Below, piece after piece: positions 3,096 to 50,565 of a DNA stretch of 64,000 nt; the first letter of the stretch is position 1; each line of letters opens with the position of its first letter. The notes under the pieces are model-generated. The model was not told where the DNA came from, searched no databases, and saw only the letters and a program-made list of their open reading frames with translations. Made by a program: the position numbers and the translations under genes. This stretch comes from a virus (lineage: Duplodnaviria; Caudoviricetes): positions 414 to 64,413 of the IMG/VR virus record IMGVR_UViG_3300028388_004484. The stretch is one strand, 5' to 3'.

Positions 3096-4412
3096 ATGTT
3101 CACCTTAAAGAATCCTTTGCCGCAAGCGATCCGGGACAATGCGCTTCTGCGAAATTTTTACCGGGAATATAACCTTGTGCCGTATGCCGGTTCTTCAAGT
3201 TATAGCGGCCATTCTTTTTTGCGGATTCTTTGCGACCTTTACGAACTTTCGCCTTCGCACGGAACCTGCATCGAAGATAAGCGATTCTGGGCTTTTGAGG
3301 GCGATCTTTCCGTCGTACCTAAAGGAAGAAGCGGGTTAAAGTCGGAAGATAGCCAGGAAGCACTTCCTGTGGCCGAACAGGAAGCTTTTGTCGATGAATA
3401 CGAAGCGGCCGGGCTTGACTTTTCAAAGCTGGCCGAAATCGTTTCTGTATGTTCTTTGAATGAGCAAAAAACCGGGAACGCCTTCCTTCGCTACCGAGAA
3501 ATTCAAGTCGGAGCGGCCCGGGTTGTCCAGGTCATGCCATTGGATCCGGTCGAAGTCATGTACTTGAATACGGCGCCCGGGGAACCGCGTAGCGTCGTTA
3601 TTAGTAAGGATTTTTTCGCCGGCAAATTTCACAATGAAAGGCCGCCGGAAGTTGTACGGGTTTATCCGGGATTTTCCGAAGGGCAGAACTACCGGGAAAC
3701 GGTTTTCCATTGGAAGAACAAGCGCGACGGATCCGATTGGTATGGGCGCCCTTCTACTTTGCAGACCCTTTACTGGCAGTACGTCGAATGGAAGAAAGCG
3801 GAAACTGAAGGGAAAATATCCGGAACGGAAACGACGGCTAAATATATCTTCGGAGCGATGAAACCGAACCCCCTGGCACAGGCCGTCGACGGCGAAGATC
3901 CTGAACAGGAATTCGCACGCTGGGCCGCGAACCTTCGGAAGATAGTAACGGCGAAAGGGGAAATAGAAGATGTCGAAGGTGTCGGCTTTATCGGATACCC
4001 CTTCGAAGGCCAAGCGCCTACACTTTACAAAATGGACGTTTTCCGAGATTCGAATTACCTGGAAACAACTATAAATTTTGCTTCCGACTATATCTACGCA
4101 TCGCACAGGTGGGGAAAAGCAATAAGCGGATTTAGTCAAGCGGCGGCGAATATCGGCGGCAATGTTTTGATCGACGAATTTTTATTCCGCAACGCAAGCG
4201 CTATTAAGCCCTTGCAAAGGAAATGGTCGAATAGAATGAAGCGGGTTTTTACCCTTATCGCCGATTTTACCGGCGGAAACCGCCTTCGGGATTACGGGAT
4301 AAAATTCGAAGATAAGGTCGAAAATTTAGTCGAAAGCTTAAAAGATGACACTATTAACGAAGAAGGAAGTACAGACTTTATCGAAGATAGGCCAGGACCT
4401 ACCGATCTGTAG
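3096..4412 (+). CDS. portal protein
   Basis: 438 aa; LYELSPSHGTCIEDK and WYGRP motifs as in Bacteroidota phage portals. Confidence 0.75.
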   Translation: MFTLKNPLPQAIRDNALLRNFYREYNLVPYAGSSSYSGHSFLRILCDLYELSPSHGTCIEDKRFWAFEGDLSVVPKGRSGLKSEDSQEALPVAEQEAFVDEYEAAGLDFSKLAEIVSVCSLNEQKTGNAFLRYREIQVGAARVVQVMPLDPVEVMYLNTAPGEPRSVVISKDFFAGKFHNERPPEVVRVYPGFSEGQNYRETVFHWKNKRDGSDWYGRPSTLQTLYWQYVEWKKAETEGKISGTETTAKYIFGAMKPNPLAQAVDGEDPEQEFARWAANLRKIVTAKGEIEDVEGVGFIGYPFEGQAPTLYKMDVFRDSNYLETTINFASDYIYASHRWGKAISGFSQAAANIGGNVLIDEFLFRNASAIKPLQRKWSNRMKRVFTLIADFTGGNRLRDYGIKFEDKVENLVESLKDDTINEEGSTDFIEDRPGPTDL

Positions 4413-15404: not shown

Positions 15405-16538
15405 ATGAAATGGACCGCTTCACTGCCGCTCGCGGCGATTTCCGTAAACTTTCCTTCCCTTACCGTAAAGGATGCCGTCGTTCTGGATTGGTTTACTTCA
15501 TTTGTCCATACCGGACGAATGGAATACAAAGATTCCGGCGGCCGTCTTTTTTATTGGGTGTCCTACGAAGAAATCATTACAGAAATTCCGATGCTTCGCT
15601 GGACAACTACGGATCCGGTTTACCGGGCTTTTCGCCGCATGGTTAAGGCCGGAATTTTTGATGCCCATCCGGACAATGCTAAGGAGAACAAAGCCTTTTA
15701 TGCTTTCGGGCCTGGATACGAAAAAATCAGGGCTTTCGATCCTATCGAATTTTTTAACGCTTTCGGCCGGAAAGGGACCCCCGGTCAAAATCAGGAAGAA
15801 CGCGAAGGGACCCCCGGTCAAAATAACGGCCGACCCCCGGTTAAAAAACCGGGTAATAATAATATAAGTAATATTAGTACAAATATAGTCCAAAACGATT
15901 TTGGACATCAATCTTTTGACCTTCCCGGAATCGAAGAAGAAAAAGAAGAAGGCGGCCCGGATCTTTTCGAAGGGGTCGATATATCCTTCGAAAGCTTTTG
16001 GAACGCCTACGGACGAAAGGAATCGAAGAAAAGGGCGAAAAGATCATGGAAGAACCTTCCTAAATATAAAAAAAAGTTGGCGATCGAAAAAGTCGCGCCT
16101 TACGACGAATTCCTTAAAGCGAATCCGTGGCGGGACAAGATGCTTCCTACGACCTGGATTTCCGGGGAACGTTGGAACGATGACTTTTCGACAAAAGCTT
16201 CCGGTTCTATTTCCGTTGAAGATTTAATCGACGTAGAAGCCGATGCGGCCCTTGTAAGGAGCTTTAAGGCCTTCCGGGGTATAGTCGCCGATAAGGCACC
16301 GGAAGTACTTTCCTGCGCCGGGCAATTAACGCTCAGTCAATATATCGAAGTCGCTACCGGTCGCGCCTTCCCGGGATATAAAAAGAAAATGACTACGGCG
16401 GGCTTAAAGTCGAAGATCCTTTCCGCGGTCGAAGCCATGGGAACTATCGACGCATATAAGGTCCGGCGCCCGGACTTTAAGATGATCGACTACCTAAAAG
16501 ACTACATTCTTTTTTCTGGAAAAAAGATTTACAAGTAA
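15405..16538 (+). CDS. replication initiator protein
   Basis: N-terminal wHTH-like region, central iteron-encoded linker, FESFWNAYGRKESKKRA...PTTWISGERWND domain typical of phage initiators. Confidence 0.8.
   Translation: MKWTASLPLAAISVNFPSLTVKDAVVLDWFTSFVHTGRMEYKDSGGRLFYWVSYEEIITEIPMLRWTTTDPVYRAFRRMVKAGIFDAHPDNAKENKAFYAFGPGYEKIRAFDPIEFFNAFGRKGTPGQNQEEREGTPGQNNGRPPVKKPGNNNISNISTNIVQNDFGHQSFDLPGIEEEKEEGGPDLFEGVDISFESFWNAYGRKESKKRAKRSWKNLPKYKKKLAIEKVAPYDEFLKANPWRDKMLPTTWISGERWNDDFSTKASGSISVEDLIDVEADAALVRSFKAFRGIVADKAPEVLSCAGQLTLSQYIEVATGRAFPGYKKKMTTAGLKSKILSAVEAMGTIDAYKVRRPDFKMIDYLKDYILFSGKKIYK
15774..15900 (+). repeat. replication origin: three iterons GACCCCCGGTYAAAA plus AT-rich element
   Basis: iterons at 15774, 15807 and 15832 followed by ATAAGTAATATTAGTACAAATATAG inside the initiator gene (lambda O-like layout). 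Confidence 0.75.
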
Positions 16539-24129: not shown

Positions 24130-24145
24130 CCGTGTGCATTTTGTT

Positions 24146-24360
24146 TTCTTACGATTTTCTTACACGCAAAAGTTTAGTTTTTACTAAACTTCTGTCGCTC
24201 AATAATTTTACTTTCCGGTCCTGTAGTTCAAGGGATAGAACGACCTTTACCTTCTTTTGCTTCTTCCTGCCTTTAAAATGCCGTTTTAAATAAGGCCGGA
24301 TCGCTTTTTTGAAGCGGTAGAAAGCAGCAGGGGCTTGTTCGGTTCTTACCTATTTCTTAC
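24146..24360 (+). other. attP: core resembling a tRNA 5' end, flanked by arm-type repeats
   Basis: GGTCCTGTAGTTCAAGGGATAGAACG (24217-24242) looks like a tRNA acceptor plus D arm; TTCTTAC pairs at 24146/24157 and 24343/24354; adjacent to the integrase. Confidence 0.7.
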
Positions 24361-33207: not shown

Positions 33208-33279
33208 GACCCCGTGGGCAAGTGGTCAAGCCGTCGGCCTTTCAAGCCGAAGTCGCCGGTTCGAATCCGGTCGGGGTTA
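33208..33279 (+). tRNA. tRNA-Glu (UUC)
   Basis: acceptor GACCCCG/CGGGGTT, D arm GGC/GCC, anticodon arm TCGGC-CTTTCAA-GCCGA, T arm GCCGG-TTCGAAT-CCGGT; CCA not encoded. Confidence 0.92.
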
Positions 33280-33299
33280 CTAACTAAAAGCAAGGTAAC

Positions 33300-46420: not shown

Positions 46421-46780
46421 ATGATAATTATTTCTCATTCCTTATTCCGAAGCGAAACGGCCGATAATCGGCCTTACGCTACCCTTTCCACTACTGTTAC
46501 CCTTCCGAATAATACCGGATACGAAATTACGGAAACGATTATCGGATCCGGATCCGGATCCCTTCGGGTTCGTTTCCTTCGCGGTGGGCAACTGAATTCC
46601 GCTTCCCGGGCCTACCGGGGTGTAGGTTATATCGGGACCCCTTTTGCTTCCTGGAAAGCGATCCGGGAAAAGTATTCCGGCCTTCGGAAAGGTGGGATCA
46701 TGGAAGAAGTCCGGGAAGCGCACGGCGATCAAAAAAGCCGGATCCTTTCCGAAATCGTCCAGCCGGGACCGTCGAAATAA
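46421..46780 (+). CDS. hypothetical early protein
   Basis: class A promoter at 46330, leader motif. Confidence 0.6.
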   Translation: MIIISHSLFRSETADNRPYATLSTTVTLPNNTGYEITETIIGSGSGSLRVRFLRGGQLNSASRAYRGVGYIGTPFASWKAIREKYSGLRKGGIMEEVREAHGDQKSRILSEIVQPGPSK

Positions 46781-46821
46781 ATTAAAGGGGCTTCGGCCCC
46801 GAACTTTAAAAGCCTGGAATC

Positions 46822-47028
46822 ATGCCTAAAAGAGTTAAGTATCAAAATTTTGAAGTTACCGGGGAAGAACCTTATTACCCCGGGGAATTTTTTTCCGTAG
46901 TTGTTGCTGCCCGTAACGCTGCGCACGCGCGCCGGTATATTCGCTGGTTGCACGACCTGGAAAGAAGCATAAAGCTTTCGGCTGTTCCTACGGATGCCGA
47001 AGCGACCGAAGAAGCAGACAGATTTTAA
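46822..47028 (+). CDS. hypothetical protein
   Basis: ORF. Confidence 0.5.
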   Translation: MPKRVKYQNFEVTGEEPYYPGEFFSVVVAARNAAHARRYIRWLHDLERSIKLSAVPTDAEATEEADRF

Positions 47029-47048
47029 AACCTTAAAAGCGAGTTAAG

Positions 47049-47558
47049 ATGAACAATTATGAAGTAAAAGACGGACTTACCCCGTCGGAACGGTGGTCCT
47101 ATTTAAAGCAGCGTTATCACGCCTTACAGGATGAATATCCAGAATTAGGGGCCTTCCCTATCGAAAAAGGAAAAACGCGGCGGGCCATTGGACAATGTAA
47201 GTTTAAAAGCCGGCATTCCGGCGCTATTTTCATTTCCTGGCCGTTTATCCAGGTTAACGACCTGGAAAAAATGTGGAAAATCATCGCGCATGAAGCTGCG
47301 CACGCCCTGGCGTCAATACATGATAACGCCCGCGACCATGATCGGAAATTCAAGCGATGGGCGCGCCGGCTTAACGCGCCGGAAGGTCACGCGGTGGACT
47401 TCGTTAATGCGCCGGAATTAAAGTACACTGTATCATGCGTCGCCTGCGGATACGAAGTTGGATATTCCCGCAAACCGAAATATGAAATGTCATGTGCGAA
47501 ATGTTCCCCGGGGCGCTTCGACCCTTCAAAAGTCATGAAAATAAAAGTTAATTGGTGA
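47049..47558 (+). CDS. SprT-like zinc metalloprotease
   Basis: RRAIGQC, HEAAH, H.R.F..W, C-terminal CxxC pairs. Confidence 0.85.
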   Translation: MNNYEVKDGLTPSERWSYLKQRYHALQDEYPELGAFPIEKGKTRRAIGQCKFKSRHSGAIFISWPFIQVNDLEKMWKIIAHEAAHALASIHDNARDHDRKFKRWARRLNAPEGHAVDFVNAPELKYTVSCVACGYEVGYSRKPKYEMSCAKCSPGRFDPSKVMKIKVNW

Positions 47559-47752
47559 TGAAAAAAACGAAGAAGAAAAAACTGATTCCCCGGAACATCC
47601 GGAACCGGAACGCGAAGGCGAAACGACGGCTTTTGAAAAATCGCCGGATCCGGGTTTGTGCGAAAACTATTTGTTTATCCTGAAAAATAAAATCATGCTG
47701 GAAAATCCGATGTATTTAGCAGACCTTCCCGAAAGCATCACACGATAAACGT

Positions 47753-47971
47753 CGTTTGCACGGCTTGCAAACGATTCGCAAACGAAGCCCCGGCGGTCAG
47801 TCTTTTCTGACTTCCGGGGCTTTTATTTTTCGGTCGTTTGCGCCCTTCCCCATCGTCGTTTGCGCCAGTTTGCTAAAGGCTTCCGGCCGATCCGGTCGAA
47901 CCGTTTGGACCGTTTGCAAGTCAAACGATTTTGACGCAAACGAAAAAATTCTTACATTGCAAACGTTTGCA
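47753..47971. repeat. GCAAACG heptamer cluster over the promoter region
   Basis: 9 perfect copies in both orientations, including the palindrome TGCAAACGTTTGCA. Confidence 0.85.
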
Positions 47972-48012
47972 CCTTCCGCGGTGCTATTTAAGAAGCAAAA
48001 AAGACGAATAAG

Positions 48013-49806
48013 ATGGCTTTTAACACCGACAATTCAAGGACTTTTGCCCGCTTTTACGGGCGCTACATGAAGCAGTTTGTTTGGGCGAAGCGCGGCGCGC
48101 ACGTCCTGAACTTCCTTTTTTCCCTTCTTTCCGTAAAAACTTTCATGGAAAGCAGCACTATAAGCCACGCTTTTGGGGTATGGCTTTCGGTCGCTTCCCT
48201 ATCTATAGGCGCCTTCGTAGCGATATGGATTGAAAAGTTAATAGATAGTAATGTCAGCATCTGGGAAGTTCAAAAAGTAAAGGGATATTCCGGGGAATAC
48301 TGGTCCAAAATGAAGCGGCCTATTACCGTTTTAGCCCTTTTTGGCCTTTTCTTAAGTCCTGTCCTTTCCTTTATGGGCGCTACCCTATTGGGCGAAAAAA
48401 CGGCGCCTGAATTCGAATATACGGACATCACAGAATTGAAGCGCGAATACGACGGCAAAAAATACCGTGAGCGGCAAACGTTCGGTGCTGACCGGGCGGA
48501 AATAAAGGAAAGGTATAAAGGCCTTGCCGATGCTGAAAAAGGGCGCTACGCGGGCCTTATTTCCGAATGGCGGAATTACCGGAAGAAGTACAATCGGCTA
48601 AAAGACGCCGGTAATGGCTGGGCCCAGGGTTACATTGACAAAGCCGATGCCAGCATTAAGGACCTGGAAAGCGATCTTTCAATCGCATTGGCGGAACTTG
48701 AAAAGCAGAAAGCTTCGGAGTTATCCGGAATTGACAAAAGAGAATCCGAAGCCGTAACGATGATTTCCGCGGAATATCAGCGGGAAAAAGCAAAGATCGA
48801 AGAAGGCGATGAAAGGAATAAGGGCATTACGGAAACGGTAAAAGGCCTATACTTCTACTTCCTGGTATTCCTGGGCCTTGCTTCTTCCGGTTTTTTGTGG
48901 TTTTACTACCATCTTGCGGCCATCTATTTTCATGGCGCCGGGAAGGAACTACCGGAAGAAGAAGCGGACCCGGATCGCACTGTTATTGAGCGCGCTTTTT
49001 CAATCGCCGGAAAAGCTGTAAACGCCCGCGCAAATAGGTTTTTAGATGGTTTGGAAAAGAAAATCGACGCAGAACCCCGGGCTTCTTCGGCTTCGGTTCC
49101 TTCTTCGGGAAGTTATGCCCGGGATCCGGAAGGCGGGTTTTTCTTCCGGGCTAATGCCGTAACAGAAAGCGACCTGCAAACGAGCGCAAACGATCCGGCC
49201 GGGGTTATGCAAACGAGCGCAAACGATCCGGCCGGATCGGTAGAAGCCCCCGCAAACGGACCCACAAACGATTATGCGCAAACGTCGCAAACGCAGGTGG
49301 AAACTGGGATTCACGCTATAAACGAAAACCCGAATGAGAAAGTAAACGAAGAAGCAAGGGCCGCTTTCGAAGCAGCACGGCAGGCGCTGGAAGATGAACG
49401 CAGGAAGATCCGGGAAGAAGCCGAAGCACGGAAGGCGGAAGCCGAAAAAGACCGTTTGCGGGCGGAAGCGAAAAAGGAAAACCCGGCGCCTTCCGGGCCG
49501 GCCGTCGAAGTCATCGACGGAAAGGTTAAGTTCTACCATAAGAACCGGCAAACCGGAAAGTGGGAATGGAAGGACCGCCGTTCGGTAACGGGAAGTAAAA
49601 GCCGGTACGCGCATTCCGTATTAAACATTGAAACCGAACTTAATCACGCCCGGCGCCGCACTTCCGTTTTCCGGGATACAAACAAATGGTCCGATGACGT
49701 CCTGGCCAAACATATCCGAAGCCTGGAAAAAAAGCTTTCCGGTCATACGGAAAATCTTAACTACTGGACACGGGCGCTACAAATGATTGACGAAATGGAA
49801 AAATAA
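48013..49806 (+). CDS. multi-pass membrane protein with coiled coil and basic C-terminal domain
   Basis: three N-terminal hydrophobic segments, long coiled coil, fourth TM, repeat linker, basic tail. Confidence 0.75.
   Translation: MAFNTDNSRTFARFYGRYMKQFVWAKRGAHVLNFLFSLLSVKTFMESSTISHAFGVWLSVASLSIGAFVAIWIEKLIDSNVSIWEVQKVKGYSGEYWSKMKRPITVLALFGLFLSPVLSFMGATLLGEKTAPEFEYTDITELKREYDGKKYRERQTFGADRAEIKERYKGLADAEKGRYAGLISEWRNYRKKYNRLKDAGNGWAQGYIDKADASIKDLESDLSIALAELEKQKASELSGIDKRESEAVTMISAEYQREKAKIEEGDERNKGITETVKGLYFYFLVFLGLASSGFLWFYYHLAAIYFHGAGKELPEEEADPDRTVIERAFSIAGKAVNARANRFLDGLEKKIDAEPRASSASVPSSGSYARDPEGGFFFRANAVTESDLQTSANDPAGVMQTSANDPAGSVEAPANGPTNDYAQTSQTQVETGIHAINENPNEKVNEEARAAFEAARQALEDERRKIREEAEARKAEAEKDRLRAEAKKENPAPSGPAVEVIDGKVKFYHKNRQTGKWEWKDRRSVTGSKSRYAHSVLNIETELNHARRRTSVFRDTNKWSDDVLAKHIRSLEKKLSGHTENLNYWTRALQMIDEMEK
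49176..49293 (+). repeat. intragenic GCAAACG heptamer cluster
   Basis: 7 perfect direct copies plus 1 variant, in two different reading frames. Confidence 0.85.
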
Positions 49807-49959
49807 ATTTTGGGATTGTGATTTGTTTTATGCCTCTGCCTTAAAAGGGCAGGGGCTTTTTTTTTACCTTTTAGTCAGAAATGTTTGACAATTAAATTAA
49901 AAAGCCATACCTTGCCTTCGTTTTAAGTCATAAAATTTTGATAAATTAAAGCCGAACTA

Positions 49960-50217
49960 ATGGAAGCTACATTAATGAAGAAAATGAGTAGGATTAAAAC
50001 GGGGCAAGATGCCTTTCTTTGGCTGAAGGACCGTTACCTAAAAAACCGGGCCTTACTTAATTTAAGCCAGATCGAAATGTTCTGCGGCCTGGGCGCGACT
50101 TCCCTTTTCCGGGCGATCGAAAGGGATCAAACCGATATGCGCGAAAGTGATAAACTTGTGCGGTTTATCGAATTCCTACAGGACGGAATCCTGCCGGCGG
50201 CGGAAAAAGAAGAATAA
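49960..50217 (+). CDS. putative HTH DNA-binding protein
   Basis: LNLSQIEMFCGLGATSLFRAI; class A-like operator upstream. Confidence 0.5.
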   Translation: MEATLMKKMSRIKTGQDAFLWLKDRYLKNRALLNLSQIEMFCGLGATSLFRAIERDQTDMRESDKLVRFIEFLQDGILPAAEKEE

Positions 50218-50340
50218 AACGGACATTTCCCGGGCGGCCTTTTGTCTTTTCGGTAATATTTGCTATATTTGATAAGCAGAATTTTTCAAATTGGTTAGTT
50301 TTCGCAGGGGCTTCGGCCCTTGCTTTTAAAGCAAGTTGAA

Positions 50341-50565
50341 ATGAACAAAAACACACCAACTCCTTACCTTTTATTCCGGGCTAAGGAAATCGCCGAAGCG
50401 CTTCCGGCGCCGGAAGATCCCAAAAAATGCAAAGTTAAGTCTATTCATCCCCGCCTTCCTGGTCAGGTTCTTAAGCACGCTTCTGGCGCCTACGTTATAG
50501 GGTTCGGTGGCGGAATTGACTTAAAAGTTAACGGCCAGGACTTCCAGGCTATAAAAATAAGGTGA
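50341..50565 (+). CDS. hypothetical protein (start probably 50341)
   Basis: leader AAAGCAAGTTGAAATG. Confidence 0.55.
   Translation: MNKNTPTPYLLFRAKEIAEALPAPEDPKKCKVKSIHPRLPGQVLKHASGAYVIGFGGGIDLKVNGQDFQAIKIR

Follow-up and report, generated by a model that had tools for sequence, protein, structure and literature searches.

A phage membrane-protein gene carries GCAAACG arrays both at its putative promoter and in its linker-coding DNA

We analyzed a 64,000-nucleotide stretch of viral DNA (the window; bases 414–64413 of the 64,413-base, single-contig virus record IMGVR_UViG_3300028388_004484) in which the gene for a membrane protein, P0001, is associated with two arrays of the heptamer GCAAACG (CGTTTGC on the other strand), one upstream of the gene and the other within its coding sequence. 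We conclude that the arrays are very probably genuine cis-elements that operate at the level of DNA, and that the words, which have the extended form Y-GCAAACG-a, are most likely binding sites for a protein. It is quite possible, if short of probable, that this protein is P0001 itself, acting through its C-terminal tail. The gene and the sites within it are as follows:

48013–49806, plus strand: gene for the 597-residue membrane protein P0001 (list of open reading frames [ORFs] and homologue search).
49176–49293, plus strand: intragenic array of seven exact sites and one one-mismatch site, in two frames and all plus-oriented (word count and resampling).
49175–49235, plus strand: perfect 28-bp tandem duplication with two sites 10 bp apart in each copy (repeat family D2).

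The original prediction had described nine copies of the heptamer in 47753–47971 and seven in 49176–49293. Our exact recount agreed, with nine copies within 47753–47970 (starts at 47753–47964) and seven within 49176–49293 (starts at 49176–49287). Across the window we counted 29 exact copies, compared with 12.09 ± 3.34 in 100 dinucleotide shuffles, the largest of which contained 22 (0/100 reached 29). Two further copies lie in the gene outside the arrays (48474 and 49453) and 11 are scattered over the other ~61.7 kb; hence, the two arrays carry the entire excess of the word. The upstream array, with nine copies in 250 bp, is also the strongest cluster of any 7-mer in the complete record (maximum of 4–5 in 30 Markov-1 shuffles). 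A pyrimidine precedes the heptamer in 16/16 array copies and an A follows it in 10/16, and the arrays include four copies with a single mismatch (47867, 47902, 47921 and 49264). Sites of the upstream array occur in both orientations, indicating that they are not specific to the RNA strand, whereas the intragenic sites are in the plus orientation only.

The intragenic array falls exactly in the DNA that codes for a disordered linker of P0001, a part in which any codon is tolerated. Its copies occupy two reading frames, four in frame 2 (encoding QT) and three in frame 0 (encoding AN), and a single unit of the 28-bp duplication already holds the word twice, 10 bp apart, in different frames. The use of two frames had been taken in the original prediction as a sign of selection on DNA rather than on protein, and synonymous resampling bore this out. 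With phage codon usage, the seven linker copies compare with a mean of 0.54 and a maximum of 6, such that 0/20000 resamples reached seven; when codons were drawn at the frequencies of the gene itself and every k-mer was counted, the corresponding result was 0/1000 at both k = 6 and k = 7. These data support the conclusion that the copies were selected or created at the DNA level and not through the protein sequence.

The upstream array lies in the region between the preceding transcription unit and the start of the P0001 gene, where we assigned these features, together with the terminator at the far end of the gene:

47752–47774, no strand assigned: inverted pair of sites (TCGTTTGCA, 5 nt, TGCAAACGA), non-coding, just upstream of the terminator (RNA fold of -12.4 kcal/mol, z -2.6).
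47778–47784, plus strand: single GCAAACG site directly before the terminator hairpin (word count).
47784–47823, plus strand: intrinsic terminator of the upstream transcription unit, a hairpin followed by UUUUAUUUUU (-29.3 kcal/mol, z -6.3; inverted repeat I21).
47921–47942, plus strand: two plus-oriented sites, the one-mismatch TCAAACG and then GCAAACG, that overlap the -35-like hexamer (site scan).
47931–47958, plus strand: sigma-70-like promoter, TTGACG, 16 nt, TACATT (consensus match only).
47959–47970, no strand assigned: perfect 12-bp palindrome GCAAACGTTTGC made of two head-to-head sites; putative operator (sequence).
49832–49856, plus strand: intrinsic terminator of the membrane-protein gene, an 11-bp stem followed by a T run (-19.2 kcal/mol, z -3.6).

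None of 200 shuffles folded as well as the 47784–47823 terminator. The promoter-like consensus is weak when taken alone, with one found compared with 2.4 expected in shuffles of the region. The palindrome directly follows the -10-like hexamer, and by eye the AACGTTTG within it (47962–47969) agrees at 7/8 positions with TAnnTTTG, which we take to be the Bacteroidota -7 box. Coverage of the promoter boxes by the repeats, as claimed in the original prediction, therefore stood in part: the palindrome abuts the sigma-70-like site and two sites overlap the -35-like hexamer, whereas the -7 box that the repeats would cover is a putative one. As read from these signals, the gene is apparently a self-contained terminator–promoter–gene–terminator unit. 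An Rfam scan of 46500–50500 yielded only a chance match to Spot 42 (21.9 bits, against a gathering score of 80).

The two arrays resemble each other over ~85 bp, beyond the heptamers themselves, as an imperfect inverted repeat:

47835–47918, minus strand: left arm of the ~85-bp imperfect inverted repeat, with three exact and two one-mismatch sites, all in minus orientation (alignment).
49208–49293, plus strand: right arm of the ~85-bp imperfect inverted repeat (alignment).

Alignment of the right arm with the reverse complement of the left gave 64/81 identical positions and a local alignment score of 43, compared with a mean of 22.7 and a maximum of 39 for shuffles that preserved the heptamers (0/500 reached 43). 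The arms share an exact 9-bp core, CCGGATCGG, and bracket the promoter together with the first two thirds of the gene. Because it is in part an inverted copy of the linker array, the upstream array looks like a secondary acquisition. Six of the exact upstream sites, at 47753, 47767, 47778, 47936, 47959 and 47964, lie outside the 85-bp repeat.

We next describe the protein, whose parts correspond to the gene as follows:

48169–48378, plus strand: hydrophobic segments at residues 53–71 and 104–122, with a weaker one at residues 31–48 just upstream (hydrophobicity and modelled helices).
48430–48837, plus strand: antiparallel coiled-coil hairpin, residues 140–275, between the third and last membrane segments (predicted local distance difference test [pLDDT] of the model, 94–98).
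48847–48915, plus strand: last hydrophobic segment, residues 279–301 (hydrophobicity).
49069–49344, plus strand: disordered linker, residues 353–444 (model pLDDT below 50 over 353–416 and 418–444).
49501–49800, plus strand: C-terminal domain, residues 497–596, with three beta strands and a two-helix hairpin (domain model pLDDT 87.9; predicted template modelling score [pTM] 0.74).

An AlphaFold model of full-length P0001, built with 24 homologues, had a pLDDT of 76.7. It contains helices at residues 6–47, 55–90, 95–130, 324–351 and 445–487, the last being a charged helix between the linker and the C-terminal module, and an antiparallel hairpin (140–198/204–308; pLDDT ~97) that ends in the last membrane segment. 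The segments at 53–71, 104–122 and 279–301 are strongly hydrophobic and that at 31–48 is weaker; residues 353–444 are unstructured in the model, matching the position of the DNA array; and the last 110 residues have a net charge of +7. Hydrophobicity and the model thus agree with the original prediction of about four membrane segments, a long coiled coil and a basic C-terminal domain beyond the repeat linker. With four membrane helices and a basic N-terminus inside, the ~135-residue hairpin would lie outside the cytoplasm and the tail within it. The model is that of a probable polytopic inner-membrane protein of an unnamed family. P0001 had no match in Pfam, PHROGs, NCBIfam or PADLOC, including no Rep, O, DnaD-type or winged-helix homology in the first three, and a fold search with the full-length model returned only ABC-exporter helices with a meaningless TM-score of 0.13. 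Modelled alone, the C-terminal domain had a pLDDT of 87.9. It was not recognized as a known DNA-binding fold: searches of the PDB by Foldseek, the PDB by VIA, and BFVD retrieved generic helical hairpins only, Atlas gave only rows below the bar, and a profile built from alignment A2, in which the C-terminal piece accompanies the full-length homologues, found nothing below E 0.5 among PDB sequences.

An exhaustive HMMER search identified 33 homologues of P0001, 441–645 residues long and 20–32% identical, that match mainly residues 1–350. The membrane part and the hairpin are present in all of them, whereas the tails differ: 10 end in the same beta-meander/hairpin module as P0001, nine in a four-Cys ribbon, two in a helix-turn-helix (HTH)-like module, and the rest in other short basic ends. 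The four-Cys ribbons have weak matches to NinG, zf-FCS and YacG, and the HTH-like ends match many HTH families, in each case below the Pfam cut-offs. Interchange of the end module for HTH-like or Zn-ribbon-like ones fits a tail that may bind nucleic acid. The family appears to be a rare, unnamed one of Bacteroidota phages and integrative elements, occurring in 1/401 genomes of a phylum-wide sample, in 10/401 genomes from the order of a Saprospiraceae metagenome-assembled genome (MAG) that encodes a member, and in several 54–67-kb phages. In phages G001 and G002 the homologue genes lie among genes for SSB, resolvase-like, methylase and annealing proteins. In genomes, the homologue adjoins a tyrosine integrase gene in 5/13 places by Pfam (L032–L036); by eye, an integrase gene also adjoins the homologue in L008 and lies 2.7 kb from that in L007. 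The L025 homologue adjoins Rep_1 and SSB genes, and that of L027 a VapE-like gene.

Other searches with this family gave little. Word-index protein searches with P0001 returned the query itself only; scans of IMG/VR with P0001 and with its SprT-like neighbour had no match; scans for the homologues P0006/P0018, P0009 and P0033 found none, P0033 being located later in a metagenome record; and the sequences of alignment A1 diverge too much for a pattern scan. In that alignment (P0003–P0034), many family members have a short conserved R-x-IGF motif within linkers that otherwise vary; P0001 has GGFFF at this place, and the motif could serve for docking to a partner. Separately, four TTGCGCTTA repeats in one orientation lie at 3863–3940 of L008, with a host GTPase-like gene on one side and the integrative element's first gene on the other, and may be arm-type or att sites; by eye, that first gene encodes an N-terminal Cys ribbon and an excisionase-like HTH, and is followed by the family member and the integrase gene.

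We also searched for arrays in 17 homologue genes. The family-wise statistic was the largest number of occurrences of any one k-mer within 330 bp, and synonymous resampling supplied the null. Two genes have robust linker arrays, L007 and L030, both with 0/1000 resamples as high at the best k. The L007 gene, which is from phage G003 and has the same type of C-terminal module as P0001, contains 12 CAACG(C/G) sites in 315 bp of linker-coding DNA, with every frame and either orientation represented. There is no other such cluster in its 54-kb phage (12 in 330 bp, compared with 0.6 expected), and the synonymous null for the L007 array had a mean of 1.8 and a maximum of 8 in 5000 resamples. L030 has 10 ACACG sites in 190 bp of linker (0/1000 at k = 7; 5/1000 at k = 5). 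The five CACACACG sites of L035 are merely suggestive (4/1000), and the k-mer test revealed nothing robust in L001, L002, L008 or nine further genes. For L007, L030 and L035, the linker word is not repeated within 400 bp upstream. Linker arrays therefore recur in the family, and the pairing of promoter and linker repeats, which the original prediction proposed to look for in homologues, is so far unique to this phage. Two clusters were set aside: GCCCGAC, present four times in the L008 linker, is not significant in the family-wise test, and a GTCAAC cluster in G001 is unrelated, falling within a 1198-residue ORF as GTT-GAC codons. We also observed five copies of AGCAAAG around codon 163 of the L023 gene (encoding P0033), in the part that codes for the coiled coil, with 0/200 synonymous resamples as high.

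Binding of the arrays by the protein would work as follows. The C-terminal tail of P0001 would recognize the GCAAACG sites. Being inserted into the membrane during its synthesis, beside its own gene, P0001 would capture the DNA molecule that encodes it. Binding to the palindrome, with looping between the two arrays, would shut off its own promoter, and the membrane helices would keep this part of the phage or prophage DNA at the membrane. This model, the most economical one, would explain why arrays occur in the protein's own linker-coding DNA in three distant members, why basic end modules are swapped, and why there is a double site at the promoter. Also in its favour, the arrays are unique in the genome, align with each other beyond the heptamers and do not derive from the protein sequence; the palindrome abuts the promoter-like site, and strong terminators flank the gene; and the initiator genes of this phage and of two related phages carry iterons of their own in mid-gene. 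More tentatively, and in our view somewhat doubtfully, family members in general may keep their own DNA target in linker-coding DNA, so that a single gene, acting in cis, would fix the DNA of its element at the membrane and thereby serve replication, inheritance or exclusion; here, the gene's own promoter would also have been captured, via the inverted copy of the array, giving autoregulation. A role in genome anchoring, segregation or exclusion, as put forward in the original prediction, is conjectural.

Several observations weigh against binding by P0001. The C-terminal domain was not recognized as DNA-binding in any of the family or fold searches. The 28-bp tandem duplication (33-bp spacing), a recent one, supplies 4/7 of the intragenic copies, so the number of independent events was less than seven. 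Robust linker arrays are lacking in 14/17 of the homologue genes tested, including three of the four others with the same C-terminal module as P0001 (L001, L002 and L023), and 0/17 have the same word both upstream and in the linker. The words of the P0001 gene, L007, L030 and L035 are alike, being A/C-rich and ending in ACG, despite their differing C-terminal modules; such likeness is better accounted for by one external binder common to all of them, or by the effects of codon use and composition in T-rich linkers, than by recognition specific to each module. Lastly, the promoter palindrome has the sequence of a known operator core: in PMC3159470, the PurR box motif is given as ACGNAAACGTTTGCNT, and several of the E. 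coli PurR boxes in Table 1, those at purMN and xanP among them, have GCAAACGTTTGC at their core.

This last observation also favours the main alternative, which we regard as possible, though rather unlikely, namely that the arrays are operators for another trans-acting regulator, either a host protein of LacI/PurR type on the palindrome or a regulator of the phage, and that the gene is an accessory, 'moron'-like one with a function such as exclusion or defence. In that case the intragenic array may be an auxiliary looping operator, like lac O2 and gal OI. The alternative is consistent with the organization of the gene as a unit with its own promoter flanked by terminators, with the likeness of the words of four family members whose C-terminal modules differ, and with the integrase genes beside the homologues, the neighbourhood of an integrase often being the site of accessory genes expressed in lysogeny. 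Operators of LacI/PurR type are 16-bp palindromes with a central CG, bound by a LacI-family dimer. However, although the 12-bp core is identical to that of PurR boxes, only one of ~10 upstream site positions is palindromic and all intragenic sites are single half-sites; LacI-type dimers are not expected on isolated half-sites, which make up 14/16 of the exact sites. The PurR boxes are from E. coli and the host here is apparently a member of the Bacteroidota. Among the Pfam-scanned ORFs of the phage (10 + 67) we found no LacI-family gene or obvious repressor. As to a defence function, PADLOC matched only two of the 33 homologues (P0015 and P0024, E <= 0.001), in both cases restricted to the coiled-coil tail of ZorA (profile positions 355–638), and P0001 does not match the MotA/ExbB-type membrane domain of the Zorya protein ZorA. 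A separate regulator also leaves the recurrence of linker-coding arrays in one gene family unexplained.

We consider it improbable that the repeats have no binding function and are a by-product of a fast-evolving, low-complexity linker, with the upstream array as an inverted duplicate that landed between genes. The contribution of the 28-bp duplication and the homology of the arrays over ~85 bp are as expected from such an origin, as are the T/N/D/H-rich linkers of L030 and L035 and the ending of the words in ACG, the commonest Thr codon of the phage (0.40). Nonetheless, the synonymous-codon null still falls far short, a single 10-bp spacing already contains the word in two different frames, the sites in L007 use every frame and either orientation, and the six exact sites outside the 85-bp repeat include the perfect promoter palindrome.

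A second replication origin, a partition site or a pac site, recognized by the initiator, a ParB-like protein or the small terminase, respectively, is a highly improbable reading of the arrays. Two arrays of a short word ~1.3 kb apart recall the P4 ori/crr, the P1 incC/incA and the P1 pac hexamers, and the phage encodes a Prim-Pol/AAA protein, a ParB_N-domain protein and an Sf6-like small terminase. However, the phage already has a likely lambda-like origin at 15.77–15.89 kb. Its initiator gene (15405–16538; match to phrog_270) contains three GACCCCCGGTCAAAA iterons at 15772–15847, followed by a 40-bp stretch of 85% A+T (15772–15890 in all). The layout is repeated in two related phages, with four CTCGGAAAAAAATCCGAG iterons in mid-initiator gene in G002, whose initiator has an N-terminus homologous to that of this phage (E 9e-8), and four ACTCGGACAGGTATCCGA in G001, where there is also an AT-rich stretch. 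By contrast, the highest 40-bp A+T contents beside the GCAAACG arrays are 0.70 and 0.675, compared with a 95th percentile of 0.725 for the window. The presence of a lambda-type origin elsewhere and the lack of an AT-rich stretch at the arrays remove the origin reading. The terminase genes are 6–8 kb away, and the ParB_N gene adjoins a PAPS-reductase/DUF3440 gene, a ParA partner not having been specifically sought. The iterons also show that, in this lineage, the gene of a binder can already have its binding sites within the part that codes for a linker.

To a further alternative, in which the arms are recombination sites of an invertible segment (47919–49207) that switches the full-length protein on and off, we give almost no credence: promoter inversions are common in Bacteroidales and, as in invertons, inverted repeats (~85 bp, with the exact 9-bp CCGGATCGG core) flank a promoter-bearing segment here, but the arms are merely 79% identical, the computed flip ends the frame after 413 residues with a four-residue new tail and no alternative C-terminal domain, and no dedicated invertase gene was found among the neighbouring genes, the only recombinase in the Pfam scans being an integrase 22 kb away.

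Comparison with known systems places binding by P0001 near, but not within, several of them. In phage lambda, the iterons of the origin lie inside the O gene. The present gene likewise has several copies of one word in the part that codes for its own flexible linker, a likeness also seen in the phage's initiator. Unlike O, the product is a polytopic membrane protein unrelated to initiators, and a second array covers the promoter; the sites, which are putative binding sites of the product, are 7–9 bp long, irregularly spaced and not adjacent to an AT-rich stretch. Mini-F repE and P1 repA are iteron plasmid replicons, whose initiators have repeated sites in or next to the gene, a feature present here with 16 exact sites. 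As in those replicons, two sets of one repeated site bracket the gene, and the inverted double site at the promoter could serve autorepression; unlike them, the downstream set is inside the coding sequence, and the likely origin of the phage is elsewhere.

Other likenesses concern membrane attachment. The sections of PMC11500499 used here describe RocS of S. pneumoniae and Par of plasmid pSK1 as single proteins that bind DNA at one end and the membrane at the other and include a coiled coil; both have a winged HTH at the N-terminus, DUF536, and a MinD-like amphipathic helix at the C-terminus. They also report the proposal that pSK1 Par binds specific sequence repeats on its plasmid. P0001 is similar in its repeated sites near its own gene and its central coiled coil (residues 140–275); it differs in its N-terminal, integral four-helix membrane domain and the unrecognized fold of its C-terminus, and a Pfam scan of P0001 found no DUF536 and no HTH. 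Phage phi29 p16.7 is small, with a single membrane segment, DNA binding that is not sequence-specific and a homeodomain-like C-terminal fold. It is an integral membrane protein of a phage, proposed to recruit phage DNA to the membrane, and interacts with the terminal protein; site arrays are not described in the portion of the source consulted (PMC4974454). P0001 has a membrane anchor and a coiled coil, and neither a sequence nor a fold match to p16.7, its C-terminal fold having given only the generic hairpins in the PDB and BFVD. Regulators of ToxR/CadC type have an N-terminal, cytoplasmic winged helix of OmpR type, a periplasmic sensor and one membrane segment rather than three to four, and P0001 has no Trans_reg_C or other HTH domain in Pfam. 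Among the papers listed when the literature was searched for phage DNA binders that are tethered to the membrane and have their sites within their own gene, none was relevant. As far as sequence can tell, the P0001 locus is a member of none of the RocS/Par, p16.7, lambda O and iteron-replicon systems, because every testable, sequence-defined feature of them is absent. What is new here is that the presumed binder, with the sites inside its own gene, is an integral membrane protein and belongs to an unnamed family.

The window is a complete temperate tailed phage, to judge from its structural genes, replication genes, amidase, holin and integrase. The first and last 50 bases of the record each occur twice, which is consistent with a circular assembly, and the plus strand holds all of the sizeable ORFs. 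These include genes for a head maturation protease, large terminase, tape-measure protein, replication initiator, Prim-Pol/AAA protein, SSB, Erf, DNA methylase, amidase and holin; for the ParB_N-domain protein and the Sf6-like small terminase; and for a tyrosine integrase with Arm-DNA-bind_5 and Phage_int_SAM_5 domains. The type of integrase and the hosts of the membrane-protein family (a Bacteroidota MAG and the Saprospiraceae MAG) point to a Bacteroidota bacterium as the probable host. GenBank phages gave no match to this phage at the DNA or protein level, only relatives at <=34% identity were found for the large terminase, and the GC skew of the window was uninformative, with all genes on one strand.

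Some further features were observed in the window. A 40-codon ORF at 47558–47680, upstream of the arrays, is very basic and by eye overlaps the stop codon of the SprT-like gene by 1 base (ATG within TGATG). The ORF at 46421–46780 has a GSGSGS stretch, and the densest cluster of the word CCGGATCC in the genome is around 46543. Three copies of GTAAGAAA lie at 24145–24360, immediately ahead of the integrase gene and at its start; they are candidate arm-type sites, although the signal is weak (seven in the window, compared with 3.5 expected). GGATCC occurs 86 times, compared with 13.8 expected from base composition, and is evenly spread over the genome; CGGATCC and its complement together occur 106 times. 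A tRNA-Glu gene (anticodon TTC) is at 33208–33280.

If P0001 does bind the arrays in its own gene, the locus would be a minimal device for tethering mobile DNA to the membrane in Bacteroidota, whose phage and plasmid maintenance systems are poorly known, and would cleanly exemplify cis-action imposed by the coupling of translation to membrane insertion. The intragenic sites, being in DNA that codes for a disordered linker, can be removed by synonymous recoding with the protein unchanged. Even with another binder, the arrays would represent a defined set of operators, with 16 sites, one palindrome and a 1.3-kb loop, on a gene family that has so far been unannotated.

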